Both the position numbers and the translations under genes were made by a program. From NCBI GenBank assembly GCA_037134115.1, contig JBAXMW010000007.1, positions 22,485 to 86,484 on the forward strand: a stretch of DNA of 64,000 nt. Reading direction: 5' to 3'. Under the pieces are notes generated by a model, which worked only from the letters and a program-made list of their open reading frames with translations, made no database searches and had not been told where the DNA came from. The stretch comes from Gemmatimonadaceae bacterium. GTDB lineage: Bacteria > Gemmatimonadota > Gemmatimonadetes > Gemmatimonadales > Gemmatimonadaceae. Shown here piece after piece: positions 17,048-39,971 of this stretch (its first letter is position 1; each line of letters begins with the position of its first letter).

Positions 17048-18244
17048 TTACCGGACCGCGTTCACCATGTCGAAGATCGGCAGATACATCGCGATCAGCA
17101 TGCCGCCGACGACGACGCCGAGCAGCACGATCATGACCGGCTCGAGCAGGCTGAGCAACGTGCTCACTGACACGTCGACTTCGGCGTCGTAAAAGTCGGC
17201 CACCTTGGCGAGCATATCATCGAGTCCGCCCGTTTGCTCCCCCACGGCAATCATGCTCGTCACCATGGGCGGAAAGACCCCGCTCCGCTGCAAGGGCGCC
17301 GCAATGGTATCGCCACCGGCAATGCTGCTCCGGCTGCGCATGATGGCATCATGCATCACGCGGTTGCCCGCGGTGCGCGCCGTGATTTCGAGCCCTTCGA
17401 GAATGCTGACGCCGGAGCCAATCAGGGTGCCAAGCGTTCGGGTGAAGCGGCTCACTGCCGACTTCCGAATCAGATCTCCCAGCACCGGCACGCGCAACAA
17501 CGCCCGATCAATCACCAACTGACCCTCAGGCGTCGCGTAGGCCTGCTTTCCCCCGACCGCCAGCACTGCCCCGACCAGCAGCATGAGCCACCAGTACGCG
17601 GTAAGCAGATGCGACAATCCCACGACAAACTGCGTCGGCCCGGGGAGCTCCACCCCAGAGCTGGCGAACATCCCCGCAAAAATCGGGATGACCTTCCAAA
17701 GCAAAATGATCACGCAAATGGCGGCCACGCTCATGATGACGGCCGGATATACCATCGCGCCGCGCACCTTTCGGGCCAGCAGGTCGCTCTTCTCCAGGAA
17801 GACCGCCAGCCGGCTCAGCATGACGTCCATCATCCCGGCGGACTCGCCCGCCGCCACCATGTTCACATACAGATCGGAGAACACCTTGGGATGGCGGCGC
17901 AGGGCGTCCGCCACGGTCTTCCCTGATTGCACATCGAACATGACTTCACGGGCGATCGCCCCCAGCGACGGATTCTCCGATTGATTGGAGAGTACGTCCA
18001 ACACCTGAACCAATGGCAGGCCGGCGTTGATCATTGTCGCGAACTGCCGCGTAAACACCACCACGTCCCGCGTCTTCACGCGACCGCGCGAGACACGCGC
18101 CACGGCACGGGTCTCATCCATCTTCAGAACGGTCAGCCGCTGACGCCGCAGCATCGCCACGGCATCATCTCGGCTTGGGGCATCGACGGCCGCGTTTCGC
18201 AGCTCCCCGTTCGGTGTGCGCGCCGTGTACGAAAACGTTGGCAT
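17048..18244 (-). CDS. pilC: Type IV pilus inner-membrane platform protein PilC (GspF family)
   Basis: 'FTRQFATMINAGLPL', 'LYVNMVAAGESAG', 'MIAVGEQTGGLD', 'AMYLPIF'. Confidence 0.95.
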   Translation of the reverse strand: MPTFSYTARTPNGELRNAAVDAPSRDDAVAMLRRQRLTVLKMDETRAVARVSRGRVKTRDVVVFTRQFATMINAGLPLVQVLDVLSNQSENPSLGAIAREVMFDVQSGKTVADALRRHPKVFSDLYVNMVAAGESAGMMDVMLSRLAVFLEKSDLLARKVRGAMVYPAVIMSVAAICVIILLWKVIPIFAGMFASSGVELPGPTQFVVGLSHLLTAYWWLMLLVGAVLAVGGKQAYATPEGQLVIDRALLRVPVLGDLIRKSAVSRFTRTLGTLIGSGVSILEGLEITARTAGNRVMHDAIMRSRSSIAGGDTIAAPLQRSGVFPPMVTSMIAVGEQTGGLDDMLAKVADFYDAEVDVSVSTLLSLLEPVMIVLLGVVVGGMLIAMYLPIFDMVNAVR

Positions 18245-18253
18245 CGGCGACGA

Positions 18254-19420
18254 CTACCGGCGCAGTGCGCCAGGCATCGGCCGGTCCGACGGCCGACCCG
18301 CCCCGCCCATCAACGCACTGCTCAGCGCATCGCCTGAGGGGAGCCCCGCCATCCGCTGAAATTCAGCGGGATCGTTGGTCGCCCGCAGGCACTCATCAGC
18401 CGATACGGTGCCCGACAGATGCAGCTCCGTGAGCGCATCGTTCAGCGTTTGCATGCCGAACTTTTTCCCTGCCTGCATCGCCGAATAGATCTGATGTGTC
18501 TTATCGTCACGGATCAGCGCCCGGATGGCCGGGGTCACCACGAGCACCTCTGCCGCCATTGCGCGCCCCCGGCCGGACCGCTTTGGCAGGAGGATCTGTG
18601 TGACGATTCCTTCGAGAACAAAAGCGAGCTGCGCCCGAATCTGCCCCTGCTGCTGACTGGGGAAGACATCAATGATCCGGTTGATCGCCTCCGCCGCGCT
18701 CTTGGTGTGCAAAGTCGCGAGCACGAGATGGCCGGTCTCCGCGATCGTGAGCGCGGCTTGGACTGTCTCGAGGTCACGCATTTCCCCTACGAGAATGACA
18801 TCCGGATCTTCCCGCAGCGCATACTTGAGCGCCGTGGCGAAGCTGCGCGTATCGGTGCCCACTTCGCGCTGATTCACCAGGCAGTTCCGGTGCGTGTGCA
18901 CAAACTCGATCGGATCTTCAATCGTCAGAATGTGCGCCCGACGCTCCACGTTGATCTTGTCGATCATTGCGGCCAGCGTGGTGCTCTTCCCGGAGCCGGT
19001 TGGCCCTGTCACCAGCACGAGCCCCCGCGGCCGTTCGGCGAAGGTCGCCACGACTGGTGGGAGCTGGAGCTGCTCAAAGGTTTTGACGACCAAGGGAATC
19101 TGCCGGATCGCGAGGCTGACACTGCCCCGTTGCCGGAAGACATTCCCGCGGAAGCGCGAGAGCGCAGGGACCCCAAAGGAGAAATCGAGCTCGTCATCCG
19201 CCTCGAAGCGTGCCTGCTGGGTCTCGGTGAGGACCGAATAGGCGAGCCGCTGCGTCTGTTCCGCGGTGAGGATGACATCCGTCAGAGACGCCACCATGCC
19301 GCCGTCGATCCGAAGACGCGGACGATCTCCGACCGAGAGATGGAGATCTGACGCCTCCCGGGCGATCATCTCCGCCAGAAGCGTCTCCAGCGTGAGCCCA
19401 TCCGTCGTAAGGAGGCTCAT
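18254..19420 (-). CDS. pilT: Type IV pilus retraction ATPase PilT
   Basis: Walker A 'GPTGSGKSTT', 'TIEDPIE', 'ALREDPDVILVGEMRD', 'TGHLVLATLHT', 'GMQTLN'. Confidence 0.95.
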   Translation of the reverse strand: MSLLTTDGLTLETLLAEMIAREASDLHLSVGDRPRLRIDGGMVASLTDVILTAEQTQRLAYSVLTETQQARFEADDELDFSFGVPALSRFRGNVFRQRGSVSLAIRQIPLVVKTFEQLQLPPVVATFAERPRGLVLVTGPTGSGKSTTLAAMIDKINVERRAHILTIEDPIEFVHTHRNCLVNQREVGTDTRSFATALKYALREDPDVILVGEMRDLETVQAALTIAETGHLVLATLHTKSAAEAINRIIDVFPSQQQGQIRAQLAFVLEGIVTQILLPKRSGRGRAMAAEVLVVTPAIRALIRDDKTHQIYSAMQAGKKFGMQTLNDALTELHLSGTVSADECLRATNDPAEFQRMAGLPSGDALSSALMGGAGRPSDRPMPGALRR

Positions 19421-21258
19421 CAGGTGGAGGTCTCGCGGATCACCTGATCAAGCGAGGTGAGCCCCTTCATGACCTTGAGCCAACCGTCCATGCGGAGGGT
19501 CAGCATCCCGGCCTGGATCGCGGCTTCCCGGAGCGTCTGCACGTCAGCGTTCTTCATAATGAGCTTCTTGAGCTCCGCCGAGATGTTCATCGCCTCAAAG
19601 AGCCCCTGACGACCACGCAGCCCGGTGTTGTTACAGGCGCTGCAGCCGTGCCCCTTGAAGAACGGCAGCTCCCCAATGCGCGTATCGAGTGACAGGTTGG
19701 CGAGGAACGGCGCCGCATCGGGTTCCGCCTTAGCCTTGGCATCCGCCAAGGCGCTCTCGTTGAAGCGCAGTTCACGCAGCGTGGTATCGGGCGTGACCTT
19801 GGCGCCAGCGAGTTCCGCCTGATCCGGGGTATAGCGCACTCGGCACTTGCTGCAAATGCGACGAACCAAGCGCTGCGCCAGAATCATGTTGAGCGCCGAT
19901 GCGACATTGAACGGTTCCAGCCCCATGTCGAGCAAGCGCACGATCGTTTCCGGCGCGGAATTCGTGTGCAGGGTGCTGAGCACAAGATGGCCCGTGAGCG
20001 CCGCCTTGATGGCGATGCCGCCGGTCTCCAAGTCACGCATTTCGCCGACCATGATGACATTCGGGTCCTGTCGCAGGAAGGCCCGAAGCGCGGCCGCGAA
20101 GGTCATCCCGATTTCCGGGCGCACCTGCACCTGATTGATCCCGTAGAGATTGTACTCCACCGGATCTTCAGCGGTCATGATATTCAGGTCGCCGTTGTTG
20201 ATGCGGGCGAGCGCGGAATACAGCGTCGTCGTCTTGCCGGAACCCGTGGGGCCGGTGACGAGCACCATACCGTAGGGATTCCCGATCGCTTCGGTGAGTT
20301 CGCGTTCTGGCCGGGGCTCCAGCCCGAACTTCTCGAGATCGAAGTTCAGGTTGTTCCGGTCCAGAATACGCAGGACGATTTTCTCACCGAAGAGCGTCGG
20401 CAGTGAACTCACCCGGAAGTCGATTACCTTCTGCCCGACCTTGAGCTTCACGCGCCCGTCCTGCGGGACTCGGCGTTCGGCAATGTTGAGCGACGCCATG
20501 ATCTTGAAGCGCGAAATCAGCGCCGCCCGCATTTTGAACGGGGGCTTCATGACTTCAACCAGCGCCCCATCGAGGCGGTAGCGGACCCGGAGTTCCTGCT
20601 CGAAGCACTCGAAGTGGATATCCGACGCGCCCTTCTGGACGGCGTCCACCATGATGGCGTTGATCAGCTTGACGACGGGCGCTTCGTCGATCTGCATCCC
20701 GAGGGGGGACGGATCGAGCGTGTCCTCCTGGCTTTCCAGGATTTCGACGTCGTCGGCCGCCGTGATGTCATGCAGCACGGACTGCATGTGCACTTCGGTG
20801 GCTTCGTAGTGCTTCTCGATCGCCGCGCGCATGGAATACTCGCCCGCCAACACCGGGACGATATCATAGCGCGTGATGAACTTGAGATCGTCAACCACGC
20901 CGAGGTCGGTGGGATCGGCGATCGCGACCGTGAGCTTGCGTCCGTCGCGCTTGAGGGGCAGGACGATGTGCTTCGACGCTAATTCGGCGGGAACCAGCTT
21001 GAGCAGGCGGGTGTCGACCTCGAACTTGGCGAGATCCACTGCGTGCATTCCATGCTGCCGGGCCAGCATCCGGACCACCTCGGTCTCCGGAATGACCCCC
21101 ATGCGGACGAGGGTCAGCCCGAGCCGTTGGCCCGGATTGACCTTCTGCTCCTGAAGCGCTTTCCCCAATTGCTCACGCGTAATCAGCCCGTCTCGGACCA
21201 GCAGGTCGCCGAGCCGTTCATTCGTACGAATGGGAAAGGGCACCACGGGTGCTGCCAT
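19420..21258 (-). CDS. pilB: Type IV pilus assembly ATPase PilB
   Basis: N-terminal MshEN-like 'RLGDLLVRDGLIT..QL.KAL.EQ', 'ASDIHFE', 'GPTGSGKTTT', 'RQDPNVIMVGEMRD', Zn motif 'RRICSKC...GCSAC'. Confidence 0.95.
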   Translation of the reverse strand: MAAPVVPFPIRTNERLGDLLVRDGLITREQLGKALQEQKVNPGQRLGLTLVRMGVIPETEVVRMLARQHGMHAVDLAKFEVDTRLLKLVPAELASKHIVLPLKRDGRKLTVAIADPTDLGVVDDLKFITRYDIVPVLAGEYSMRAAIEKHYEATEVHMQSVLHDITAADDVEILESQEDTLDPSPLGMQIDEAPVVKLINAIMVDAVQKGASDIHFECFEQELRVRYRLDGALVEVMKPPFKMRAALISRFKIMASLNIAERRVPQDGRVKLKVGQKVIDFRVSSLPTLFGEKIVLRILDRNNLNFDLEKFGLEPRPERELTEAIGNPYGMVLVTGPTGSGKTTTLYSALARINNGDLNIMTAEDPVEYNLYGINQVQVRPEIGMTFAAALRAFLRQDPNVIMVGEMRDLETGGIAIKAALTGHLVLSTLHTNSAPETIVRLLDMGLEPFNVASALNMILAQRLVRRICSKCRVRYTPDQAELAGAKVTPDTTLRELRFNESALADAKAKAEPDAAPFLANLSLDTRIGELPFFKGHGCSACNNTGLRGRQGLFEAMNISAELKKLIMKNADVQTLREAAIQAGMLTLRMDGWLKVMKGLTSLDQVIRETST

Positions 21259-21341
21259 GCGGAATGCAGAGCCTGAGAAACGGGGGATGGCGCGGGCACC
21301 CCGGTACCGGGCCCCTCGCAACAAGAAAGACTGTGCCCGCT

Positions 21342-21812
21342 TCAAAACGTCACCGATGGGGCCAGTTTGGCGGCCGTGGCCTTCCCGATGCCGGGGACAC
21401 CGAGGAGGTCATCCAGACTGCGGAAGGGACCGTGGCGTTCGCGGTAGGCCACGAGGCGCTGTGCCAAGGCGGGGCCGATCCCTGGGAGGCGCTCCAGTTC
21501 CTGGGCGGTCGCCCGATTGACCGGTACCGGTCCCTGGGGTCGGGTTGGTGTGCGAGCCGCGCGGGCGGTATCCGGTGCCGTCCGTGGCGCTTTCGTGTTT
21601 TTGCCCCGCCGCCGAGTGGTGGCCCGTGCCGAATCCACGGCGGCGAGCTGGGCGGCGACGGCGCGATCCGCGAGGGGGCGCAGGGGGGCTTCGGGGAACG
21701 CGTCGGCGACCACTCGATCGAGCGTCCGGCTCTGCTGGAAGCGCACGCCGGCGCCGGTGACCGCGAGGGCGGCGAGAAAGAGGAGGGCGTGACGTTCGGC
21801 GGTGGTGGGCAT
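21342..21812 (-). CDS. comEA: ComEA-family helix-hairpin-helix DNA-binding protein
   Basis: N-terminal TM segment; 'VNRATAQELERLPGIGPALAQRLVAYRERHGPFRSLDDLLGVPGIG'. Confidence 0.9.
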   Translation of the reverse strand: MPTTAERHALLFLAALAVTGAGVRFQQSRTLDRVVADAFPEAPLRPLADRAVAAQLAAVDSARATTRRRGKNTKAPRTAPDTARAARTPTRPQGPVPVNRATAQELERLPGIGPALAQRLVAYRERHGPFRSLDDLLGVPGIGKATAAKLAPSVTF

Positions 21813-21889
21813 GCCAGAGGGTAGCACGCCCCCTGCGGTGGACCATCACCCTTTTCCCGCACCGCCCATCACGGGAACGCGCCCTGCTG

Positions 21890-21919
21890 CCGACCCATGC
21901 TCGTCGAGCAGGAGGTCGG
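21890..21919 (-). terminator. Imperfect GC hairpin downstream of sprA, no U-tract
   Basis: CCGACC-ca-TGCTCG-t-CGAGCA-gga-GGTCGG. Confidence 0.35.
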
Positions 21920-21920
21920 T

Positions 21921-21965
21921 CTACGGCGGTTCGGCCTACGGCAGCTCCGCCTATGGCAGCTCGCC
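21921..21965. repeat. 15-bp degenerate tandem repeat x3 containing the sprA stop codon
   Basis: The minus strand reads GELP*-AELP*-AEPP* in one frame. Confidence 0.85.
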
Positions 21966-24900
21966 GGCGAAAAAGCGCATCTGGAAGATCACGCTGAAGA
22001 CCGTCGTGGCAAGACGACGGTTCAGATTCCGGTCAAAATTCAGGATGTGGGAGCCGGTGAGGCTGAAGGTCAGCGTCTCCGACACATCGGTATCAGCGTT
22101 GACGTTGAACGCTTGGCGGCCGTTATCGGTCAGCACCGACACACTGGGCATCCCCACCGCCGCGGGCACCGGCACGCCATCACGGGCCGCCGTCACGGTC
22201 GCCAGGGTGGCTTCCGACTGATACGACAGGCGGGTGCGGAGGAGCCCGGTCCGCGTCTTCCACTGCGCCGGCAGCGGCAGCGACCGCACAACGTCCACCG
22301 AAAAGCGACGCGTGTCCCCGGCGGTGAGTGAGCCCGGTCGCACATCCTCGCGGTGGATGTGATCGATGGAGCCACCGGTCACGAGATTCCCGAAGCCCGC
22401 CCACGTAATCGCCCCAGAGAGCGGCTGGCTGCGCGCCCGCTGCGCGCTCCGGTCTGCGATCCCCTCCAACCCACTCGGCATGATCGTGTGCTGCTCCGTG
22501 AGCGCGTAGCGCCCGTTGATCGAGATGAGGCTGATGAGCGACTGCGCCCGACCGGTGGGACGCCATCCCCACCGAAGCGACAGATCCGGATAGGTGCGGC
22601 GATCGCCACTGATCAACGTTTGGGCGTCCGAGCCGAAGCGCCGCGTCCAGGTCTCGGTGGTGCCCCGCTCAAAGCGCGTTTGCAGCGTGAGTGACAAGGG
22701 CAGCGCGAGCGCACCGCTGGTGGTGACCGTCTGTACGCGGCCGGCGGCGGTCGCCCAACGACCGGACCGGGTTCCGCGGAAGGCCTCCACACCGCCCAAC
22801 CCAAACTGATAGCCAATGCCTGGATCAAGCACGGCGTTGTCGTAGCCGGAGGTGAGGTCCTGCTGCCAGTTCACATCGGCGGGAGCCAGCATCCCGGCCA
22901 GCGTGCGCACCCACGCGTGATCGGACGCCAGCGCCGTCAGCACGCGCCCGAGCTGCAGCTGCGCGCCGGTGGCCAGACTGTTGGTCGCGCCAGCCCGCTG
23001 CGGTAATCGGAAGGCTCCGAGACTGTCCGCGTCGCGCAGCAGCGTCCGCGCGTTGAGGTCCTTGCCGAGTCGGAAGGTGGACCGCCAATCGAACCGGGGT
23101 TGCAGCCATGCGGTCGTCACGGGCTGAAAGCGCAGGCCACTGCTCAGCAAACGATCCTGTTCCAGTCCCAACGAGGTGCCGAGGAGCTGCAGCCGATCGA
23201 GTGCCGCCGCGGCACGACGCGCCGTGCTGTCCACGCCATGCGTTACTGCGGCGACATCACGCAAATCGAGCACCTGTCGTGCATCGATCGTGCCAGTGAG
23301 TCCGGCCAGCGGTCGGAACTCGAGCCGCGCCGCATTGACCCACGCGTGCGTGAGCCCACGCACCGTTTGTCCGGAATCGCGGAGCGAGGCGACGAGCGTA
23401 CCATAGCTCGTATTGTCGATCGCCGAGCGGGAGACCGTGCTGCTGAGACGGAAGGCCGTTGGCCGGGCACGCACCCCCTCCGCGACGATGGCCCGCGCCA
23501 TCTCGCTCTCGCGCATCCATGTCGGCAACCGATCGAGCAACGCGCGCAACGCCCACGGCATGGTGCCGGCAGCCTCGGTGCGCAAGTCGAGTGATGAGCC
23601 GAGCAGATAGTTCGTCGCCGTACCGCGCTGGAACGCGCTCTGCGACTGCCCGCTCGACCAGGCTCCGGTGAGCGAGAGTCCATTCACCACGGGGGCATAC
23701 CACCCCGAGGTCAGTGGTGTGGCCCGACGCATCGCCAGTGCATAACTCAATCGACGATCATGCGGCGTCCGCACCCCAGGGACCCCACTGGCCCGGATGT
23801 CGGTGCGCGCGACAAAGAACGGGTCCACCGCTTGCCCCGTGTAGTCCACCGTCAACGGCATGACCACCCCGAGCCGCTCAGGCAAGAGCCGCTCCAGATG
23901 GACCGTTGTGCCCACCGTCACCCCACTCGTGGTCAGGAACCCCGGTGTTTCCCCGAGCTGGCGGAAGTTGGGATCGCGACGGCTGACCGCCATGCGCAGA
24001 TCGGCCAAATCACCCGCATTCACCGACAGACCGAGTTCACCGGCCATCCCCATGTCGGCAACCACGTCCGACAGGCGGATATCGTTGACCCACAGCTCCA
24101 GTGTGTCATTCGCCATGATGGCCGTGCCACCACGCGCGACACTGTCGACGCGCACAAGGCCCACCGCAAGTTCCTGCACGCCGGCCAGATTCGGCGGCGT
24201 GACCAACGGATCCGCGCTGTAGACGATATACCCGTCCCGACAGACGGCATATCGACGCCCGAGCTGCTGCCTCGGCAGTCCCGATCGACGGAGCAGCTCC
24301 AGATCGACGCCGGTGCACGCCAACGAATCGGGACTTGCGGTCAGCACATTCGTTTCGAGCTGTGCGCGCAACGCTTGGAAACGCGTGAGATCCACCCGGA
24401 CTTCCGGATCCCAGGCACTTTGCGTGGGCCCCGCATTCACGGGGGTCCGGTACATGTAGAAATTGTGTTCGTCGCGACCGATCTTGATGAAGCCATTCAG
24501 TTCCCCACTGGGGCCCCAACCGTTGCCACGACCGCGCATCCACATCCGGAGCGTGCGATAGCCCATGAACGACTTCGTCCCTTCCGGGAAGCGAAAGTAG
24601 GCTTCGGCGCGATCGAAGGGCCGGAAGACGCGGCCGGGAATGCCGGTCTGCAGGCGCAACGCCCGCTCGTTGACCTGCACGCGCACATTTTCGTAGCCCG
24701 TCTGCTTGTTCTCGGGCGATTCGACCACACCGGGCGGCGGCGTATACGGCAGCGCAGCCGTGGAGTCCATGGTGCCAATCAGACTGGCCACGACATACCC
24801 GCCCGTCACCGCGGCCGAATCGCCGGCCGCTCCACTGAGCGGCATCTCCGACCGCTTGACCCATGGGGCGCCCACGAGATTGAGGCGGGCGATGGCGGTT

Positions 24901-27900
24901 TGTACCAGATCCTCATCGGCCGCCTGTCCGTTTGAAACCATCGTGAGGCGGAGCGTGCGCATGCGCCGTTCGTTCGGGGCATTCAGCTGCTCGAGCGGTG
25001 TGCGCCAGTTGAGGCGCACCTGCACCCAGCAGACGGAATCCGAGACGACGGTGGTGCCACTGGAATCGGCCTGCCGGAAGCATCCTCCCACGCGCGTCCA
25101 ACTGCGACGATCGGACAGATCCACGGCATAGCGTCGGATCTGCTCCGACTCCGCGAGCGCCGACGGGACGTTGAGCTGTCCATCCTGGTCGAGATCTTCC
25201 TCGTCGAGGCGACTGTTCCGCACCGTGCAATTCGCGCGCGTATCTCCGAGCGATTGCACCGTGCCAATCGCCTGCGAACAGAGGGGGACCCCGGTCGCGG
25301 TACGCGTGACAGGGGCGCCTCCCGTGCGGTCAACGACCGTCAGCGAATCGAGCAGATCGCCCGGCAACCCCGTATCGTTGATCGCAGCATTGAAGGCCCG
25401 CGAGAAGGGATCGCGTTCGGAATCGAGACGGTCGTAGCCGACCAGTCGCTTGCCGCGCCACGTCGAATCCGGCGCAAGACCGGCACGCAGCGGCGGTGCC
25501 ACCGTCAGCGTTTCGGGAGCGAACGCCACACTGTTTTCGCTGATCTCCCCGACGTCAAAGACGAGGGTGGGATTCCGTCGGAGTTTGGCGGGCTCCACCT
25601 GCACGAGCGCGAAAAACTCCAGCGTTTCAATACGCGAGAGATCGGCACCGGTGGGATTGAGCACGGTCCGCAATGAGCGCCAGCGACGCCCCGTTGGCGT
25701 CGCCCCCATCGCCGACGTGCCGCCCACCGTCCACGCCGCGCGACGTGTGCCCGTCGCCGGATCGCGGCCCATGAGGCCACCCGCGCGCAGCGGATAGAGC
25801 GACAGCCAGAGGAGGGGTTCGGCGCCCTGCAGCCCAGACCCGGCCGTGCGTACCGCGGGGTCGATTTGGTCAATGCGATACTGCACGAACGCCCCATTCG
25901 CATCGAGGCCGTAGTTCTGGTAGGCGAGTGCCGTCGCACGATTCAGCGCGAACGTGCCACTGCCCACGAGGCCGGTGAGCGCGCCGCCGATGGCCGGTCG
26001 CGAGCTGACATACCAGGCCGCATCACCCAAGGCGACCCCGAGCCCCGCGTTCCCCTCGAAGCTCTCGAGATACGCTTGCCCCGCCGCATTTGGCTGCGGG
26101 CGACTCACCGCGAACTCGCCCTGGAGCGACAACCGCGACGGCCGGGCGCTGGGCGTGACCGTCAGCTGGGAGGTGAGCCGATTGAGCAGCGGAGCGTCCC
26201 AAGCGAGCGCACCAGTCATCCCTGCTACGATCGACCCCGCCGATTCGAAGCCGAGCATGGGGCGGTTGTACCCTGAGCGCTGCGTCTGCGAGATGGCGGT
26301 GAAGGTCAACTCGCCATGCGGAATGGGCAGCGCCGACGTGATCCCCAGCATCGTGGTGGGAATCGTGGCAAAGAGCGGATTCTCTTCGTAGCGCACCGTC
26401 ACCGGGCGCGGGCGCGGGAAGAGCGTGTCGCCGCGCACAAAGGTGATCGTGCCAAGTTCGTACTCAATTCGGTAATCACGATCGCGCAGCAGCGGCTGTC
26501 CCTCGAGGGTGAGCCGCTCAGAATTCGGCCGGATCTGCTGACTCATCAACTGGATGGTGTACGGCGCATCGCCACCCGACGACTGATACTGCAGCATCAG
26601 CCGAAAGACCGCCTGCGGGCGCTGCGTGGAGTAGAGGTATTCGTTCGGAAACCGATAGAGGGTGTCGTTGGCGGGATTTCCCGCCGGCTGCGCGAGCCCG
26701 GCCCGCGCAAACGGCTGCACGGACGGGAAGAAGAGAAAGGCATCGCGCAGCAGGGGATCGCGACCGCCACTCAACGCGCTCACATTCGCATCAGAGCGCC
26801 GGGGCCAGACGCGATTTTCAATATCCAGCGCGCTCGGATTGGTGGCCTGTGCGAGGCCGAACAGCTGCAGATAGGTCCCCCCGCGCGAGGGGTCGACGGG
26901 CTTCTCCTGATCGCCCCCCAGGCCGGTCACCACGCGGAGCGCGAGCGATTCGCGCTGCAGATCATCGCCGCCAAGCCGATAGACAGATTTGATTTCGCGG
27001 AGAAAGTACGCGGGGGAGGACGGTTGCAGCTCGGGCTCCCAGAGCAGATTCGCGACTTGGGGCGCGTCGGTGGCCTCGATGTCGGGGGTGCCCCCCGTGG
27101 CGAGATACCGCTGCGGCGTCCCGTTGACCGTCACTTCGTAGGCGATGGCAAGCCGCTCGCCATTGGCCTGTAATGGCCGCACCAGCGCGAGCCAGAGCCC
27201 CGAGGGATCGAGGACATAGTCGATGTTCTCGCGGAGCACTTCGTAGACTTGCGGCGCGGGATTCCGGGCGCCACGCACGGCAAGACGCGGCCCCCGGGGA
27301 TTCGGGTTCGCCGCGCCCACCAGCTGCCGATAGAGCACGATGCGGGTTGGGCGAATCGTATCCGGCAGGGCGGCGGCAGCCTGCAGGAGCTGGCTGCGGT
27401 TCAGCAGGTCGATATTTGGGAAACCGGGGAGGAGGCGCGGGTCGATCGTGAAGAAGAAGCGTCGCGTCTCGATCTGGATGTCCTCAATGGCCCGTTCGGT
27501 GGCCTGCTGCGTCCGATCGCCGACCACGAAGACGTTATCGCGGGAGACATTCCCCTTCTGTTGCGCGAGCATGGAAGTGACGCGCAGGGCGCCAAACTGT
27601 CCGGTGGCCTGGATCCCGTAGTTCCCGGCCGGGATCCCCGCCGTGAGAAACCGGGAGACCGGGGCCGGAAAGTTCACATTGCCGACTTCGAGCTTTTGCA
27701 GGACCTCTCCAGCCTTCCCTTGGTAGAAGACCGAGATCGCATTGGAGGCGTCGAACTCGCGCTGCGAGTCGTAGTCCACGTTCAGATGCAGCCGCTCAGC
27801 CACCACCCCCGCCGTCCGGAGCGAAAACTGAAAGTCAAAGGCGGGTTGGAAGGCCCCGGCGCAGCTGTTGCTGAGCAGGGTCAACTGGGCTGCGGTGCAC

Positions 27901-28172
27901 CGGAGGTTCCGGGTGCGGGCCAGCTTCGACTCCAGACGGGCATTGAGCGCCATCCCAAGTCCGGCCAGCGGATTGTCCGTGGGGGTCCCGGTGCCCAGCA
28001 ACCGGGCACTGTCCGCCGGTGGCACCCGTTTGGGGGTAAGGACAGGGCCAGCCGGTGGCGTACTCCCCTGTGCCGCGGCCTGACGCGGGGTCAGAAGGGT
28101 CAGCCAGAGCAGCGCCGCGCACGCAGCGGCGGGGAGCAGGCGGAGTCCACACCTGCCGGGGAAAACGCTCAT
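21951..28172 (-). CDS. sprA: SprA/Sov-like giant outer-membrane beta-barrel (T9SS translocon homologue), 2073 aa
   Basis: Signal peptide; SprA N-terminal signature 'NVDYDSQREFDASNAISVFYQG...LQKLEVGNVNF...GNYGIQATGQFG...AQQKG'; 'NSERL...L.RD.DY.I.YELGTI', 'YLESFEG', 'LWVNDIRL'; beta-strand-rich C-terminal half. Confidence 0.8.
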   Translation of the reverse strand: MSVFPGRCGLRLLPAAACAALLWLTLLTPRQAAAQGSTPPAGPVLTPKRVPPADSARLLGTGTPTDNPLAGLGMALNARLESKLARTRNLRCTAAQLTLLSNSCAGAFQPAFDFQFSLRTAGVVAERLHLNVDYDSQREFDASNAISVFYQGKAGEVLQKLEVGNVNFPAPVSRFLTAGIPAGNYGIQATGQFGALRVTSMLAQQKGNVSRDNVFVVGDRTQQATERAIEDIQIETRRFFFTIDPRLLPGFPNIDLLNRSQLLQAAAALPDTIRPTRIVLYRQLVGAANPNPRGPRLAVRGARNPAPQVYEVLRENIDYVLDPSGLWLALVRPLQANGERLAIAYEVTVNGTPQRYLATGGTPDIEATDAPQVANLLWEPELQPSSPAYFLREIKSVYRLGGDDLQRESLALRVVTGLGGDQEKPVDPSRGGTYLQLFGLAQATNPSALDIENRVWPRRSDANVSALSGGRDPLLRDAFLFFPSVQPFARAGLAQPAGNPANDTLYRFPNEYLYSTQRPQAVFRLMLQYQSSGGDAPYTIQLMSQQIRPNSERLTLEGQPLLRDRDYRIEYELGTITFVRGDTLFPRPRPVTVRYEENPLFATIPTTMLGITSALPIPHGELTFTAISQTQRSGYNRPMLGFESAGSIVAGMTGALAWDAPLLNRLTSQLTVTPSARPSRLSLQGEFAVSRPQPNAAGQAYLESFEGNAGLGVALGDAAWYVSSRPAIGGALTGLVGSGTFALNRATALAYQNYGLDANGAFVQYRIDQIDPAVRTAGSGLQGAEPLLWLSLYPLRAGGLMGRDPATGTRRAAWTVGGTSAMGATPTGRRWRSLRTVLNPTGADLSRIETLEFFALVQVEPAKLRRNPTLVFDVGEISENSVAFAPETLTVAPPLRAGLAPDSTWRGKRLVGYDRLDSERDPFSRAFNAAINDTGLPGDLLDSLTVVDRTGGAPVTRTATGVPLCSQAIGTVQSLGDTRANCTVRNSRLDEEDLDQDGQLNVPSALAESEQIRRYAVDLSDRRSWTRVGGCFRQADSSGTTVVSDSVCWVQVRLNWRTPLEQLNAPNERRMRTLRLTMVSNGQAADEDLVQTAIARLNLVGAPWVKRSEMPLSGAAGDSAAVTGGYVVASLIGTMDSTAALPYTPPPGVVESPENKQTGYENVRVQVNERALRLQTGIPGRVFRPFDRAEAYFRFPEGTKSFMGYRTLRMWMRGRGNGWGPSGELNGFIKIGRDEHNFYMYRTPVNAGPTQSAWDPEVRVDLTRFQALRAQLETNVLTASPDSLACTGVDLELLRRSGLPRQQLGRRYAVCRDGYIVYSADPLVTPPNLAGVQELAVGLVRVDSVARGGTAIMANDTLELWVNDIRLSDVVADMGMAGELGLSVNAGDLADLRMAVSRRDPNFRQLGETPGFLTTSGVTVGTTVHLERLLPERLGVVMPLTVDYTGQAVDPFFVARTDIRASGVPGVRTPHDRRLSYALAMRRATPLTSGWYAPVVNGLSLTGAWSSGQSQSAFQRGTATNYLLGSSLDLRTEAAGTMPWALRALLDRLPTWMRESEMARAIVAEGVRARPTAFRLSSTVSRSAIDNTSYGTLVASLRDSGQTVRGLTHAWVNAARLEFRPLAGLTGTIDARQVLDLRDVAAVTHGVDSTARRAAAALDRLQLLGTSLGLEQDRLLSSGLRFQPVTTAWLQPRFDWRSTFRLGKDLNARTLLRDADSLGAFRLPQRAGATNSLATGAQLQLGRVLTALASDHAWVRTLAGMLAPADVNWQQDLTSGYDNAVLDPGIGYQFGLGGVEAFRGTRSGRWATAAGRVQTVTTSGALALPLSLTLQTRFERGTTETWTRRFGSDAQTLISGDRRTYPDLSLRWGWRPTGRAQSLISLISINGRYALTEQHTIMPSGLEGIADRSAQRARSQPLSGAITWAGFGNLVTGGSIDHIHREDVRPGSLTAGDTRRFSVDVVRSLPLPAQWKTRTGLLRTRLSYQSEATLATVTAARDGVPVPAAVGMPSVSVLTDNGRQAFNVNADTDVSETLTFSLTGSHILNFDRNLNRRLATTVFSVIFQMRFFAGELP

Positions 28173-28276
28173 GCGGAGCCGCGGTCCTGCCCGATCACAG
28201 CCAGATCACTCACCGATCATCAATTGTTTACCCTGATGCCCTTGAAAATGCGGCGCGTGACGGCGGAATTTACGTC

Positions 28277-29941
28277 GTGAAGCTCCTGACCCGCTACGTC
28301 GTGCGTGAGCACGTCGGCCCGCTCCTGTTCGCGCTCAGCGCGCTGACCTCCCTGCTCATGCTGCAGTATGTGGCACGGCAGCTGGCCAATCTGGCCGGAA
28401 AGGGGCTGCCCTGGCGCGCGATCGTGCAGTTTTTCGTGCTCTCGTTGCCGTTCACGGTGGCGATGACGCTCCCAATGGCCGTGCTGGTCGCCACGTTGTA
28501 TGCCTTCGGGCGGATGGCGGCCGAACATGAGATCACCGCCTTCAAGGCCAGCGGGATCCGGGTGCGGACGCTCATGCTGCCCGTGATGGGGTGCGCGTTC
28601 CTGTTGTCGCTGGCGATGGTCGGGTTCAACGATCAGATCCTCGCCCGCGCCAATCATCGCCTGCGCATTCTCCAGCAGGATATCTCGCGCACGAAGCCCA
28701 CGCTCGCCTTGCGCGATCAGGTCCTCAACGCCCTCACGGAGCAGTTCTACATCCGCGTGGCTCGCAGCGATGCAGAGTCGAACCGGATGTGGGACGTCGT
28801 GATCTACGACCTGTCGAGGGGACCAGAACGCAAAACCGTCTACGCTGACAGTGGGCTGTTTCTCGTCGCCCCCAACGGAAAAGATCTGCAGCTGCGCCTG
28901 TTCCACGGCCATTCGCAGGCGTTTGTGAAGGGCGATCCGCGCCGGTTCCAGCGCGACTTCTTTCAGGAACAGACGGTGCAAGTCCGTGGCATCACGCAGG
29001 GCTTCGAAGCGTCGCGCGCCGATAACTACAAAGGCGACCGCGAAATGACCGTCTGCGAAATGCAGCGGAAATACGCCGTCTCCGCCCGGGAATACGCCCG
29101 CGCGCGGCAAGAGTACATCATGTACGCCAGCCGGGTCGTGGCGAAGGGCACGAAGACGATCACGGTCCCGCGTCCCCGTCCGCTCCGGGATGCGTTGGCC
29201 GACTTTTATTGCACCACGCTCCCGGGGATCTTCCTCCCGGCCTCCGCGCGGGCCGCGGCGGCGCCAACGACGCGTGGGCAAGACACGACCCGGGGCACGA
29301 CCGGCACGGTCCAACCAGCCGTTCCCCCGAAAAAAGACACCGGTGCCACGACCGGAGGTGCGGCCACGACGGGTGCCGTGACTGTCCCATCGGTGACCGT
29401 CCCGCCAGCCCCACCGGTCACGTCCACCACCGTGCCAGCAGCCCCACCGGTCGCCGCGCCCGTCCCGACGGTGGTCTCGCCATCCGCCGAGGAACAGCTG
29501 GAAGCGTCGCGTGGTGAACTGCTGGCCGCGACGGCTCGGCTGTCGGAAGCGCGCGATACGGTGGACGGGGTGGCCGTCGAAATCCAAAAGAAGTTCGCGC
29601 TCTCCTTCGCCTGCCTGGTCTTCGTCCTCTTTGGCCCGCCGATCGCGCTTCGATTCCCGCGGGGTGGTGTGGGCGTCACCTTGGGCGTGAGCATCGTCGT
29701 CTTCGGGCTCTATTACATCTGCCTCATGGGCGGCGAAGCCCTCGCGGATAAGGGGATGCTCCCCGCCTCCGTCGCGATGTGGATCGCGAACGTCATCTTC
29801 GCGCTGGCCGGTCTCATCCTGGTGTGGCGCGTTGAGAGCACCACGGACACCAGCCGTGGCGGCGGGCTCGCCGATTGGTGGGCCGCGCGGAAGGCCGCCA
29901 AAGCCGCGAAAGCCATCACGGCGTCGGCGGTGCGCTCGTGA
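28277..29941 (+). CDS. lptF: LptF/LptG family LPS-export permease (LptF-like) with a long Thr/Pro/Ala insertion
   Basis: GTG start 'KLLTRYVVRE'; 'LPMAVLVATLYAFGRMAAEHEITAFKASG'; 'EIQKKFALSFACLVF...GPP'. Confidence 0.85.
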   Translation: MKLLTRYVVREHVGPLLFALSALTSLLMLQYVARQLANLAGKGLPWRAIVQFFVLSLPFTVAMTLPMAVLVATLYAFGRMAAEHEITAFKASGIRVRTLMLPVMGCAFLLSLAMVGFNDQILARANHRLRILQQDISRTKPTLALRDQVLNALTEQFYIRVARSDAESNRMWDVVIYDLSRGPERKTVYADSGLFLVAPNGKDLQLRLFHGHSQAFVKGDPRRFQRDFFQEQTVQVRGITQGFEASRADNYKGDREMTVCEMQRKYAVSAREYARARQEYIMYASRVVAKGTKTITVPRPRPLRDALADFYCTTLPGIFLPASARAAAAPTTRGQDTTRGTTGTVQPAVPPKKDTGATTGGAATTGAVTVPSVTVPPAPPVTSTTVPAAPPVAAPVPTVVSPSAEEQLEASRGELLAATARLSEARDTVDGVAVEIQKKFALSFACLVFVLFGPPIALRFPRGGVGVTLGVSIVVFGLYYICLMGGEALADKGMLPASVAMWIANVIFALAGLILVWRVESTTDTSRGGGLADWWAARKAAKAAKAITASAVRS

Positions 29942-31044
29942 GCGCGAAGGCGCCGCGCGGCCGGGCCCGGTGGCTCAGTCCACTCGACTGGTATGTCGCG
30001 TCCGAGTTCCTCCGGATCTTTCTCGTGACCATCGCGGGCTTCCCCGTGCTGGTGTTCGTGATCGATCTCGTGGACAACCTACGGAAGTACACGGAGCGGA
30101 AGCTCACCTTTGAAGCGGTGGCGCTCAGCTACTTCTACTGGATTCCGGACACGCTCTTCATGGTGTTGCCGGCCGCCGTGCTCTTCGCGACCGTCTTTTC
30201 CATTGGCACGTTTACGCGATACGCCGAGATCACGGCCGCCAAGGCGTCGGGGATCAGCTTCTACCGTTTCATTGCGCCGATCCTGATGATGGCGATCTTC
30301 GCCATGGGGCTGGGGCTCGTGTTCAGTGAAGTCGCCCCGCCAGCCAATGCCAAGCGGCTCCGTCTGCTCGCGGGCAAAGGCACCGTGCGGGAAACGATGC
30401 GCTACAACTTTGCCGTCGCCACCGATCTGGGCCGCTCCTATCGCATTTACACCCTCGATGTCGACAAGCGACGGCTGCAAAAGATCGAAGTCGAGGAGCG
30501 GGGCTCCACCAAGCGCCCAGGGCTGATCATCGCGGCCGACAGCGGCGACTGGACCGCGCGTCGCGGCTGGCGCCTCCAGAGCGCCCAGCTGCATGTCGTC
30601 CCCAACGACTCGATCGATCATGCGTTCGGCTTTGATTCGCTGATCGACCGGCGTCTCAAGGAAACGCCGCAGGATCTGAGTGCGCGGGACCGCGAACCCA
30701 GTGAGATGCGCTTCGGCGAGCTGACGCGCTTCATTCGGGCGCTGGAGCGCTCCGGGGCTGATGTCAATCAGCTCAAGGTGGAACGCATGCTGAAGCTGGC
30801 GATTCCGGTCACCTGCGTGATCATCGCACTCTTTGGTGCCCCGCTGGCCACCAGCTCCCAGCGTGGTGGGGCCGCCTATGGGATCGCGATCAGCCTCGCG
30901 ACGACGGTATTGTTCCTCGTGCTGATTCAACTCACGAAAGCGATCGGCGGCAAAGGGCTGATGCCGGCGGAACCCGCGGCCTGGCTCCCCAATGTGTTGG
31001 TGGGGTGCGTGGCACTCATCCTCCTTCGCCGCGTGCGTACCTGA
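29938..31044 (+). CDS. lptG: LptF/LptG family permease (LptG-like)
   Basis: 'LDWYVASEF', 'LPAAVLFAT...EITAAKASGIS', 'KLAIPVTCVIIALFGAPL', 'AAWLPN'. GTGA overlap with lptF. Confidence 0.88.
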   Translation: MSAKAPRGRARWLSPLDWYVASEFLRIFLVTIAGFPVLVFVIDLVDNLRKYTERKLTFEAVALSYFYWIPDTLFMVLPAAVLFATVFSIGTFTRYAEITAAKASGISFYRFIAPILMMAIFAMGLGLVFSEVAPPANAKRLRLLAGKGTVRETMRYNFAVATDLGRSYRIYTLDVDKRRLQKIEVEERGSTKRPGLIIAADSGDWTARRGWRLQSAQLHVVPNDSIDHAFGFDSLIDRRLKETPQDLSARDREPSEMRFGELTRFIRALERSGADVNQLKVERMLKLAIPVTCVIIALFGAPLATSSQRGGAAYGIAISLATTVLFLVLIQLTKAIGGKGLMPAEPAAWLPNVLVGCVALILLRRVRT

Positions 31045-32935: not shown

Positions 32936-35900
32936 TTAGAAGCTGTAGCGCAGGGTAAGCTGCAGCTGGTAGTTGTTCGACGCCGAGTTCGGGTTCACCG
33001 AGAAGGGCGAGCCGGTGTTCAGCATCGCGTTCCGGATCGACGAGTTCAGCGTGAAGTTCGACAGCGACGTGTTCAGCGGGCCCGCCGTGCGGCCCGAGAG
33101 GTTGTACAGCTGCTGCTGCGGGAACGTCGACTGCACCGGATACTTCACCCGACCCCAGTTCTTGTTCATGAGGTTGAGGAAGTTGAAAACATCCAGCTGC
33201 ACCGTGAGGCGGTTGTTCTTGACGCCCGGGAGCGTCTGACGCACGGACACGTCCATGCGCTGCTGGAACGGACCGTAGCAGCTGTTGCGCTTCATGATCT
33301 GGCCGCGCTGCTTCTCGAGGCACGACTGGGACTTGATGAACTCGTCGAGCAGATTGGCTTCACCGTAGTTGTACTGCCAGGCGGTGCCGCTGCCGAGGCC
33401 GACGCGCACTTCGTTCGGATCCAGCGCGTTCTTCGGGATGTACACTGGGTCATTGCCCGCGAAGCCATCGCCGTTGAGGTCGGCATTCGCCGTGTACATG
33501 TACGGCACGCCGGAGATGCCTTCATAGTAGAAGGTCACGTCCGTCTGGTTTTCCTTCCAGGGCGCCGTGTAGGTGCCGTAGAAGAGCACGCGGTGCGGGC
33601 GCTCCCACACCGACGACGCGATGTCCGACGGATCGTTTTCGAGCCCGGCGTACTGCCGGCCGTTCCGCCAGTTGGAGATCGCGCGATCCGACGTCAGCGA
33701 CTGCACGTCCTTCGACTGCGTGTACGTGTACGCCGCCGTCGCCTGGAAGGCGCGGCTGAAGCGCTTCTTCAGCTGGCCGCTCAGCGTGTAGTTGTAGCCG
33801 GCCTTCGAGTTCGTCACCATGATCGCGCCTTCGGTGAAGTTCACCAACGGCGTACCAACCGACGTGATGTACTTCTGGCCGGCGTTGGTCACGGCGCCCG
33901 TGCTGCTGATCGTATCGGCGTACAGGATACGGCCGTTGACGTCCGTGTACGGGACGCCATTCACCACGCGCGGGCCCTTGAGGTTCAGGTCGCGGATGTA
34001 GAGCCCCTGGATGTCCTTGCGGTACATCGCTTCAAAGGTCGCCACGAGCCCCCACGGCAGCTTCTGGTCCATGCCGAACGACATGGTGAGGTTCTGCGGG
34101 TACTTGAAGTCCGGGTCGGTCACGTTGACACCGACGGTGCCGGCAGCGCCCGGCGTCGGCGCAGCCAGGCCGGCGCACGACTTCGGCAGCGCGTTGATAT
34201 CCGTCGTGAACCCGGGCGTCGCCGTGCCGGTGCACTGCACCGTTACGCCACCGAGGCCCGTGTTGCCGTAGGCGTTACCGATCAGGATGAACGGCGTGCG
34301 GGCGGTGTAGAGGCCGATGTTGCCGCGCACCTGCGTCGACTGATTGCCGTTCACGTCCCAGTTAAAGCCGATACGCGGCGAGAAGAGCCACGTGGCCTTG
34401 GGCGCCCAGTCGGTCCGGATGTTGGCCGCCTTCTCCGTGATCAACGGATTCTGCTTCGGCGCATCGGCGAACTCCGGGCGATCGACGCGCACACCGGCGG
34501 TGATCGAGAAGTTGCGCGACACGTTCCACAGATCCTGCGCATACGCCGACAGCTGCGACGCGTTGAACTCGGCCGCGATCGGGCCGCTGTTCGCGTACGA
34601 GAACGCGTAGCTCGACGGCGTCCCGGCGTTCAGCGCGGCGATGTTCGGGAAGTAGTACGCCCCGTACGCCGCGCCGCTGAGGAAGTAGTTGTAGATGTAC
34701 ATCTTCTCGAACCGGCCACCCACCGTCACGTTGTGCGCGCCGAGCGGGATGGAGAGGTTGTCCGAGATTTCGAGGATCCGCTGCTTCAGGTCATTGTTCG
34801 GCGAGAAGCGCTCGGAGCCCACCGTCACGGCCACGCCCTGCACGGCCAGCGAGATTTCCGGGGCCGTGACCGGCACGATCCGGTAGTCGCGGATCGTGTT
34901 GTAGCCCACGAGCAATTCGTTCGCCGCGCCGTTGTTGAAGTTCGTGAACAGCTGCGAAACGATCGAGCGGTTCTGATTGCGACGCGTGAACGAGTTGGAG
35001 GTCAGGCGGATGCCCGAGCTCTGGTTGCTCGCGCCGTTCGCATTCAGCGCCGTCGTGTTGCGCGAGAACTCCACCTGCTCGGCGGTGTTGTCGAGGACAC
35101 GGATGGCGAAGCGGTTTGCGTCGTTGATGCTCCAGTCGAGGCGGCCGAAGAGGTTCGTCAGCGGATTGCCGCGCCGGAGGGCGTCTTCGGTGCCCACATC
35201 AAACTTGCTGCCGAGGATGCTGCGGATCGCCGCAATGGAGTCGCGCGACACGCCGCCGATCGAGTTCGTGATCGTGTTGATCACGGGGCCCGAGGTCGGG
35301 TCCGTGCGCTGCTGGAATTCCGGGGCGATGAAGAAGTGCAGCTTGTCCTTGATGATCGGGCCACCGAGGGTAAAGCCGATGTTGTTGTACTTGAAGTCGC
35401 TGGCGCGGATCTGGTCCACGTTGGCGGCCATGCGCGGATTCCGGTACGTGTTCGTCACGCCACCGGTCCACGTGTTGGTGCCGTTCCGCGTGACCGCGTT
35501 CACGAGCATGCCGCCGAAGTTGCCGTAGCGGACGTCGGTCGGGCTCATGAGGACCTGGAATTCCTTGACGGCGTCGACCGACAACAGGCGGCCGCCCGTC
35601 GCGCCACCGGGCTGTCCGCCCGAGGAGCCGAGGTTGAACAGGTCGTTCTGGTTGGCACCGTCGACGGTGAAGTTGTTCAGACGGTTGTAGGCGCCACCGG
35701 CGCTCGCGCCGCTCGTGCCGTCCTTCGACACCTGCGGCGTCAGCTTCACCATTTCCGTGAAGTCACGCTGCAGCGTCGGAACGCGACGGATGATCGTGTC
35801 CGTGACGATCGTCGCCACACCCTGACGGGTCGGCGAGAACTCCGCCGCGGCGGCCGCCGCCGTCACCGCGACCGCCTGCAGCTGCGTGGCCGCTTCGGTC

Positions 35901-36238
35901 ATGGTGAAGTTGATCGGCGTCGTCAGGTTGAGCTGCACCAGGACGGACGGCTTGGTCTGCGGCGCGTAGCCAATCAGCTTCGCCGTCACGCGATAGGTGC
36001 CGACTTCGAGGCCCTGCACGAAGTAGCGGCCATTGCTCCGCGTGATCACGCCCGCCCGGTACCCGGTCGAGACGTTCACAATTTCGATCTGGGCGTTTTC
36101 GATGGGCGCGCCACCGGTCTTCGTGACCGTGCCGCCAATGGCGCCGGTGGTGAGGCCCTGAGCCGCCGCCTGGCTGGACACCCCGAACGTCAGGGCCAGC
36201 AGAGTGGCAGCGAGGCCGAGCCAACGCTGAATGCGCAT
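32936..36238 (-). CDS. Oar-like TonB-dependent receptor (carboxypeptidase-regulatory-like N-domain), copy 1
   Basis: Signal peptide; 'GRYFVQGLEVGTY.V'; plug 'NNFTVDGANQNDLF', 'EFQVLMSPTDVRYGNFGGMLVNAVTRNGTN'; 'FSPRIGFNWD'; C-terminus 'QLTLRYSF'. Confidence 0.9.
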   Translation of the reverse strand: MRIQRWLGLAATLLALTFGVSSQAAAQGLTTGAIGGTVTKTGGAPIENAQIEIVNVSTGYRAGVITRSNGRYFVQGLEVGTYRVTAKLIGYAPQTKPSVLVQLNLTTPINFTMTEAATQLQAVAVTAAAAAAEFSPTRQGVATIVTDTIIRRVPTLQRDFTEMVKLTPQVSKDGTSGASAGGAYNRLNNFTVDGANQNDLFNLGSSGGQPGGATGGRLLSVDAVKEFQVLMSPTDVRYGNFGGMLVNAVTRNGTNTWTGGVTNTYRNPRMAANVDQIRASDFKYNNIGFTLGGPIIKDKLHFFIAPEFQQRTDPTSGPVINTITNSIGGVSRDSIAAIRSILGSKFDVGTEDALRRGNPLTNLFGRLDWSINDANRFAIRVLDNTAEQVEFSRNTTALNANGASNQSSGIRLTSNSFTRRNQNRSIVSQLFTNFNNGAANELLVGYNTIRDYRIVPVTAPEISLAVQGVAVTVGSERFSPNNDLKQRILEISDNLSIPLGAHNVTVGGRFEKMYIYNYFLSGAAYGAYYFPNIAALNAGTPSSYAFSYANSGPIAAEFNASQLSAYAQDLWNVSRNFSITAGVRVDRPEFADAPKQNPLITEKAANIRTDWAPKATWLFSPRIGFNWDVNGNQSTQVRGNIGLYTARTPFILIGNAYGNTGLGGVTVQCTGTATPGFTTDINALPKSCAGLAAPTPGAAGTVGVNVTDPDFKYPQNLTMSFGMDQKLPWGLVATFEAMYRKDIQGLYIRDLNLKGPRVVNGVPYTDVNGRILYADTISSTGAVTNAGQKYITSVGTPLVNFTEGAIMVTNSKAGYNYTLSGQLKKRFSRAFQATAAYTYTQSKDVQSLTSDRAISNWRNGRQYAGLENDPSDIASSVWERPHRVLFYGTYTAPWKENQTDVTFYYEGISGVPYMYTANADLNGDGFAGNDPVYIPKNALDPNEVRVGLGSGTAWQYNYGEANLLDEFIKSQSCLEKQRGQIMKRNSCYGPFQQRMDVSVRQTLPGVKNNRLTVQLDVFNFLNLMNKNWGRVKYPVQSTFPQQQLYNLSGRTAGPLNTSLSNFTLNSSIRNAMLNTGSPFSVNPNSASNNYQLQLTLRYSF

Positions 36239-39803: not shown

Positions 39804-39971
39804 GTCACTCTCCAATTCGAGGGATGGGGGCGAGACTCGCACCTACCTCGACGGAATGTGCACGGCCTGAGAAGTCAGAACAGTTGGGTTGGCAATCGTT
39901 TCGCTTCCGTTACCACCCGCCACCGCGCGCGACAGGACGCGCGATGGACGGAAAGGGGCGGAGCGTGATGA

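Follow-up and report, generated by a model that had tools for sequence, protein, structure and literature searches.

A SprA homologue of Gemmatimonadota and its possible place in a reduced type 9-like export route

[quoted passage not shown] Passing statements that draw on BLAST-type evidence hold that it ‘may also be present’ in Gemmatimonadetes, Chlorobiota, Ignavibacteriota, Rhodothermota, Cloacimonadota, and Fibrobacterota (Mizgalska et al., 2024, PMC11285876; Bochtler et al., 2018, PMC5837995); when every component was demanded, a systematic survey found the system in Bacteroidetes alone (Abby et al., 2016, PMC4793230). No paper was found on the T9SS component set of Gemmatimonadota, on its cargo, or on the order of genes sprA-comEA-pilBTC. 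The present analysis concerns a 64,000-nucleotide stretch of a Gemmatimonadaceae genome (GCA_037134115.1, contig JBAXMW010000007.1; hereafter the window), which encodes a homologue of SprA, also known as Sov, the outer-membrane translocon of the T9SS.

Among the described systems that lie closest to this locus, one is SprA of Flavobacterium johnsoniae, a giant β-barrel of 2403 residues with structures in the PDB (6H3I, 6H3J, 8GL6, 8GL8). Another is Sov of Porphyromonas gingivalis together with the attachment complex of PorV, PorU, PorQ, and PorZ. In current models of type 9 secretion, the step that requires energy is the pulling of the PorV-substrate complex off SprA, for which the GldLM proton motor acts via the GldKN hub (Lauber et al., 2024, PMC10994853). 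A further context is offered by the Lipocone preprint (10.1101/2025.01.14.632903), in which an FCB-group operon combines VanZ-2, SprA, a GcvH-like protein, and TonB-C. There, SprA is treated as a channel set in a conserved operon of envelope genes, apart from the classic T9SS gene sets, which resembles its setting in the window. Compared with these systems, the Gemmatimonadota locus is read here, with rather better than even confidence, as part of a working but pared-down T9SS-type export route that would consist of SprA, a PorV-family carrier, and two cargo proteins bearing a C-terminal domain (CTD), with no recognisable GldKLM energiser.

The Gemmatimonadota SprA protein

The open reading frame at 21951..28172 on the minus strand starts with ATG, encodes 2073 amino acids, and is an intact, true SprA homologue outside Bacteroidota. 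Its product scores 875.2 bits (E 1.2e-262) against TIGR04189, the NCBIfam equivalog model surface_SprA for the T9SS outer membrane translocon Sov/SprA, which has a cut-off of 200 bits. In a six-frame search of the genome, model positions 126-2317 of 2319 were covered inside one open frame. Among PDB sequences, phmmer matched SprA of F. johnsoniae (6h3i_A; E 1.4e-26). The match falls into three blocks, the N-terminal one of which pairs query residues 111-210 with residues 170-266 of the Flavobacterium protein. The Pfam model SprA_N (PF14349) fell just under its gathering score, with 25.5 against 27 bits over one stretch at residues 1353-1453. The SprA homology proposed in the initial annotation is strong.

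The protein begins with a predicted Sec signal peptide (residues 1-34; 28071..28172, minus strand) that would be cleaved between AAA and Q. Read from the translation by eye, the N-terminus MSVFPGRCGLRLLPAAACAALLWLTLLTPRQAAA followed by QGS displays an n-region with basic residues, then a hydrophobic core and finally AxA as a motif, in agreement with the signal peptide previously assigned to it. The gene has a GC content at third codon positions (GC3) of 0.79, the same as its neighbours. When compared to its closest orthologue (locus L025, 97% identical), sprA has a dN/dS ratio of 0.049, which implies strong purifying selection.

The fold was predicted with AlphaFold2 in two overlapping halves, each from 25-sequence alignments of Gemmatimonadota homologues. 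Mean pLDDT was 72.6 for residues 874-2073 and only 55.8 for residues 36-1200. At the C-terminal end of the more confident half, some 25 long β-strands follow one another in antiparallel order and would form the barrel wall (residues ~1377-2073; 21954..24044, minus strand), where pLDDT is mostly 80-95. In Foldseek searches of the PDB, the top four matches of both halves were SprA chains, with E-values of 1.6e-29 to 4e-24 for the C-terminal half and 5.4e-34 to 1e-20 for the N-terminal half. The next matches other than SprA followed at 1.8e-6 (MtrB) and 0.055, respectively. TM-scores against the SprA chains are low (0.26-0.38), an effect of modelling each half separately. As both half-models place SprA chains at the top, the predicted fold is SprA-like, and the comparison with the Flavobacterium structure proposed in the initial annotation returned a SprA-like fold at the level of half-models. 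The barrel typical of the SprA family has 36 strands, an extracellular cap, and a lateral opening; the half-models show about 25 long strands in the C-terminal 700 residues.

F. johnsoniae SprA is thus the sole strong structural match of both halves. The two proteins share an NCBIfam equivalog over nearly the full model length, a signal peptide, a giant β-barrel whose C-terminal strands are long, and a candidate partner of the PorV family encoded in the genome. They differ in size, the Gemmatimonadota protein being about 330 residues shorter, and their identity in structural alignments is only ~10-16%. Unlike F. johnsoniae, the genome studied here has no detectable GldKLM, and its sprA gene is flanked by lptFG and comEA-pilBTC rather than by the neighbours found in Bacteroidota.

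The cysteine pairs singled out in the initial annotation, including the CSQ...ANC motif, are real. Four pairs were followed through 48 Gemmatimonadota SprA homologues of 31-97% identity. Three of them are invariant in all 48 proteins: C92/C104 (CTAAQLTLLSNSC; 27861..27899), C965/C982 (CSQ...ANC; 25227..25280), and C1286/C1311 (24240..24317), all on the minus strand. The fourth, C1031/C1048 (25029..25082, minus strand), is kept in 41-42 of the 48. For at least the last three pairs, F. johnsoniae SprA has no cysteines at the aligned positions as far as the phmmer alignment extends; C92/C104 is not part of that alignment.

The window spans positions 22485-86484 of contig C7 in a metagenome-assembled genome of 3.26 Mb and 189 contigs (90% complete), in which no 16S rRNA gene was found. 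Its taxonomy is evident from 74 related loci in species-representative genomes. All those with informative titles derive from Gemmatimonadota, mostly Gemmatimonadaceae or Gemmatimonas, and two titles carry no taxon. SprA identity among these loci is 97% for the closest, then 60-66%, and declines to 31-36%. The host is therefore a member of Gemmatimonadota and not of Bacteroidota, as had been suspected from the sequence. Gemmatimonadota is itself a phylum of the FCB group.

SprA is widespread in this phylum. In an even sample of 151 Gemmatimonadota genomes, it scored above cut-off in 120 genomes, which represent 64 of 82 genera and every class-level group sampled. It is lacking in 30 of the 151, ten of which belong to the same family as the window. 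Wide presence combined with scattered absence indicates that sprA is old, mostly retained, and repeatedly lost. Its occurrence in about 80% of the sampled genomes, together with a gene order conserved across the phylum, fits vertical inheritance, and SprA is probably an ancient FCB-group inheritance in Gemmatimonadota. Of the two origins offered in the initial annotation, an ancestral translocon is hence the probable one; no evidence was found for a repurposed translocon.

Candidate carrier and cargo, and the search for a motor

A candidate carrier is encoded on another contig of the same genome (contig C115, ~2180-3168, plus strand), after era. The protein is a PorV/PorQ-family barrel that scores 120 bits against the family model NF033709, above the cut-off of 90 bits. 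Across the phylum sample, SprA and PorV-like genes occur together in 107 genomes and are both missing from 26; 14 genomes have SprA alone and four have the PorV-like gene alone. This corresponds to an odds ratio of ~50 (Fisher p 3.5e-15, uncorrected for phylogeny). In addition, ten genomes from the window's family lack SprA, and nine of these lack the PorV-like gene as well. This joint loss suggests that the two proteins work as a pair in genomes that retain them. The gene immediately following that of the PorV-family protein encodes a 321-residue protein (C115:3168-4133, plus strand) whose membrane segment contains PGAGQ and which resembles DUF5683 weakly (E 0.017); it is a possible partner.

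The same distribution bears on whether SprA persists here as a decaying remnant of an ancestral T9SS from which cargo and motor have been lost. Such decay could account for the very small number of CTD proteins in this genus and for the 30 of 151 genomes without SprA. It does not sit well with an intact frame of 2073 codons, a dN/dS of 0.049, and invariant cysteine pairs, nor with the co-loss of the PorV-like gene, which implies that the two function together in genomes that have both. This explanation is already disfavoured and is regarded as very improbable.

The initial annotation had considered the cargo signal and the plug partners of the translocon to be unknown. For the cargo signal, this is only partly right, given the canonical type-A CTDs of related families, two divergent CTD proteins in the genome studied here, and its PorV/PorQ-family barrel. 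The three deepest families of the phylum (f10 to f12) encode 24 to 35 or more proteins per genome that match TIGR04183, the curated type-A CTD model, and their CTDs are textbook-like (...NYPNPFNPSTTI...SGVYFYRL...KKMVLLK). Genomes of the same order as the window contain one or two such proteins each, and four other genomes of the genus contain none. Of 65 CTD-positive genomes, 64 are also SprA-positive. The CTD-positive call for one genome (G123) is doubtful, as it involves a contig of 6350 bp (contig C2 of that genome; loci L110 and L132) that is probably a contaminant. This contig has 44% GC in a phylum of high GC and carries two identical, very canonical CTDs. An M14 carboxypeptidase with a CTD, present in relatives of the same family, has no homologue in the genome studied here.

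To search this genome, a phylum-tuned hidden Markov model (HMM) was built from 27 Gemmatimonadota CTDs, none of them its own, and compared to its six-frame translation. Two domains were recovered, both exactly at protein C-termini. The first belongs to a 148-residue protein (C78:2299-2745, minus strand; E 1.9e-15) that comprises a signal peptide, ten further residues, and a CTD with insertions. The second belongs to a 347-residue protein (C40:14867-15910, plus strand; E 7e-6) with a signal peptide, Ig/fn3-like repeats, and a CTD. Both CTDs are 32-40% identical to canonical CTDs of cargo proteins from family f10. The 148-residue protein has orthologues of 45-50% identity in three genomes of the same order, and the CTDs of these pass the TIGR04183 cut-off. 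These matches at two C-termini point to a divergent type-A CTD as the cargo signal and to a very small cargo set. The search of the proteome for T9SS CTD-like tails called for in the initial annotation thus yields two, both of which curated TIGR04183 misses.

Other candidates for sorting signals did not survive inspection. Six weak TIGR04183 matches in this genome are internal, with 130-578 residues between them and the C-terminus. When the final 120 residues of every predicted protein were clustered de novo, no family of T9SS-like tails emerged; the shared-tail families that did emerge are ordinary domains, PEP-CTERM proteins, and a family with CarboxypepD_reg and TonB-receptor-plug-like domains ending in CGVIVIWT.

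The attachment complex of P. gingivalis shares with this genome the translocon, a PorV/PorQ-family barrel, and the type-A CTD signal. A closer resemblance is visible in relatives from the same order (G046, G125, and also G122), where a four-gene cluster (L140:1729-9585; L142:86-7496) lies ~14-20 kb from sprA. The cluster encodes a protein of ~1310 residues that has a CTD at its C-terminus, a barrel of the PorV/PorQ family, a protein with a GWxTD domain, and a lipoprotein. Here the PorV-family gene directly follows the gene for the large CTD-bearing protein, akin to porU-porV in P. gingivalis. Unlike PorU, however, the large protein of these relatives matches neither PorU nor C25 peptidases. 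In the genome studied here, no homologue (E<=1e-5) of the ~1310-residue protein or of that PorV-family copy was found, and the GWxTD protein has only a weak partial match. The number of candidate cargoes is also different, with two here as opposed to dozens in P. gingivalis.

On present evidence, SprA has most likely kept its function as outer-membrane translocon, in a type 9-like export route. By analogy with F. johnsoniae, translocon, carrier, and cargo would act together. Sec would carry the proteins across the inner membrane, after which those with a type-A-like CTD would pass into the SprA barrel at its periplasmic mouth. The PorV/PorQ-family protein, a barrel of the 14-strand type, would dock at SprA and take up the cargo, which would then be released to the cell surface.

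Several observations weigh against this interpretation. The C115 protein is far under the equivalog cut-offs for PorV (52 against 250) and PorQ (56 against 220). Curated TIGR04183 returned nothing over its cut-off in this genome, and curated Pfam and NCBIfam models gave only sub-threshold fragments on its two CTDs, split by insertions. The motor and its ring present the largest gap. GldL had no match in this genome at E<=1 and exceeded its cut-off in none of the 151 phylum genomes. GldM had no match in any of the 151 genomes nor in any control, so that its absence is not established. Matches to GldK across the phylum cover only the generic FGE domain and do not exceed 112 bits, where the cut-off is 350; the best in this genome has 87 bits over model positions 218-406. 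The gene for this FGE-like protein was rejected as gldK, having unrelated neighbours and no gldLMN-like genes after it. A crude topology scan of the genome for an adjacent pair of membrane proteins resembling GldL and GldM produced one unconvincing pair. As none of the 14 control genomes bears a T9SS, the negative results for GldL, GldM, and GldK come without a positive control and leave the absence of these proteins unproven.

The motor is either too divergent for models trained on Bacteroidota or replaced by something else. In the first case, Gemmatimonadota would possess an ordinary, complete T9SS whose GldL, GldM, GldK, GldN, PorU, and other components have diverged beyond the TIGRFAM and NCBIfam models. 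Families f10 to f12, which have SprA, several PorV paralogues, and dozens of canonical type-A CTDs yet no GldL or GldM match, suggest that these models may be blind in Gemmatimonadota. The GldM model matched nothing anywhere, in a comparison without a T9SS-positive control, and the curated CTD models likewise missed two real CTD-like tails. On the other hand, the SprA, PorV-family, and CTD models all work over the same evolutionary distance, the topology scan delivered no GldL/GldM-like pair, and no T9SS was reported outside Bacteroidetes when the full component set was required (Abby et al., 2016). Full-length GldK was found in none of the 151 genomes. The GldK-like FGE lipoproteins of f10 were considered as part of a divergent gldKLMN operon and rejected, since the next gene encodes a CTD cargo protein of ~1000 residues rather than GldL, GldM, or GldN. 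A complete but unrecognised T9SS is the main rival explanation, though a less likely one. In the second case, export by SprA, PorV, and CTD would proceed without the GldLM motor and GldKN ring, and release would depend on another energy transducer or on none at all; this too is only a tentative proposal. Within the pared-down route favoured here, the system is T9SS-like in its translocon, carrier family, and signal, and has no recognisable motor or ring.

Gene order around sprA and other secreted proteins

On the minus strand, 123 bp downstream of sprA, lies a gene for a comEA-like helix-hairpin-helix protein (21342..21827; HHH_3 74.9 bits; ComEA HhH region TIGR00426, 59 against 53.1). No terminator-like site was found in the gap of 123 bp, and scans for promoters and terminators around sprA gave nothing informative. 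The comEA-like gene is followed by pilB, pilT, and pilC, which encode the ATPases and platform of a type IVa pilus (17048..21345, minus strand; PilB TIGR02538 693 against 675.65, PilT TIGR01420 482, PilC 457 bits). The starts and stops of comEA, pilB, and pilT overlap or nearly abut. On the other side, lptF and lptG (28220..31044, plus strand; Pfam LptF_LptG 260.9 and 226.2 bits) are divergent from sprA. The longest lptF frame, starting with GTG at 28055, shares 118 bp with the start of sprA, which is read from the opposite strand; lptF probably begins at a point farther downstream, and 28220 was adopted.

This order, with lptF and lptG reading away from sprA, the comEA-like gene, pilB, pilT, and pilC, was compared across loci L001-L074 and L145-L149 with positions 17048-31044 of the window. 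It recurs in every related locus with enough flanking sequence, down to 31-35% SprA identity. The deepest lineages, with SprA at 23-28%, retain it in G006 and G012, partly in G002, and as lptF beside sprA in G061. None of the Lipocone operon partners (VanZ-2, GcvH-like, TonB-C) flanks sprA in the window. The conserved linkage of sprA, comEA, and pilBTC may reflect inherited gene order or co-regulation.

Such neighbours also raise the idea that SprA serves them, in addition to or instead of protein export, as a conduit or assembly factor for DNA uptake by ComEA and the type IV pilus, or for lipid transport by LptFG/Mla. The arrangement of lptGF beside sprA, the M28 gene where present, comEA, and pilBTC is kept in every locus with flanks even at 23-35% SprA identity; the short gap to comEA lacks a terminator-like site, comEA, pilB, and pilT overlap in stops and starts, and genomes of this genus have no CTD matches by the curated model. 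Gene order within one phylum can, however, be plain inheritance, and the distribution of SprA follows that of PorV-like and CTD genes, its partners in the T9SS. The genome also carries three secretins of its own (PilQ-like, T2SS-like, and Tad-like), so the pilus needs no other outer-membrane channel, and a role for SprA as that channel was ruled out. A function tied to these neighbours is thus improbable, and the export route remains the preferred reading of the locus.

In many other Gemmatimonadota lineages, a gene for an M28-peptidase lipoprotein of ~300 residues, which may be glutaminyl-cyclase-like, stands between sprA and comEA (L056:15907-16872, L036:15988-16923, L065:7399-8487, L072:11955-12860, L147:7183-8115, L149:5748-6644). 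Its start overlaps the stop of sprA at L056, L036, and L072. The gene is missing from the sprA locus of the window, and the genome has only distant M28 relatives (24% identity). The window also encodes two paralogous outer-membrane proteins of ~1100 residues with CarboxypepD_reg and OMP_b-brl_4 domains (32936-36238 and 36525-39842, minus strand). Both have an unusually high GC3 of 0.85-0.90, compared to ~0.80 in neighbouring genes, and are kept near sprA in relatives.

Additional families of secreted proteins occur in this genome. Many predicted signal peptides end in AxA followed by Q, including those of SprA (residue 35), the C115 PorV-like protein, and the 148-residue protein on C78. A ‘Q-rule’ after signal peptides has been described for Bacteroidetes. 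In a crude count that predicts cleavage sites poorly and gives a rough figure only, Q follows AxA in 13% of signal-peptide-like N-termini and in 3.5% of cases elsewhere. Twelve secreted proteins identified by eye combine CarboxypepD_reg-like repeats with a C-terminal TonB-receptor-plug-like domain and no barrel. They share the tail ...VEVY...P.EF...CGVIVIWT(K/R) and are exemplified by C10:61350-62909, C11:70412-72190, C25:27376-32472, and C35:14340-15776, with eight more. Eight proteins of PEP-CTERM type with VPEPSTYALM...RRRR tails (C4:51327-56703, C22:11615-12352, C60:2692-3537, C7:11026-11637), five of them clustered on C4, imply an exosortase system.

Implications for type 9 secretion

The Gemmatimonadota system is best regarded as a variant of the known T9SS, reduced and atypical. 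If it indeed exports without the GldLM motor and GldKN ring, as tentatively proposed above, this minimal form, in an operon-like block with comEA, pilBTC, and an M28 lipoprotein, may resemble the ancestral FCB-group machine more closely than the T9SS of Bacteroidota does. Should sensitive searches recover divergent GldKLMN, the finding would become a routine extension of the T9SS to another FCB phylum, as already suspected in reviews. The tiny cargo set of the genus, with two candidates, and the culturability of Gemmatimonas species make a clean genetic test possible. Throughout a whole phylum, SprA and PorV-family barrels appear to be retained, joined in some classes by CTD cargoes in their dozens, without recognisable GldL, GldM, or GldK. 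If this is true, the motor must be able to change until it is no longer recognised, or else the translocon must accept another source of energy. Both outcomes would matter for the evolution of the T9SS and for which of its parts are truly essential.

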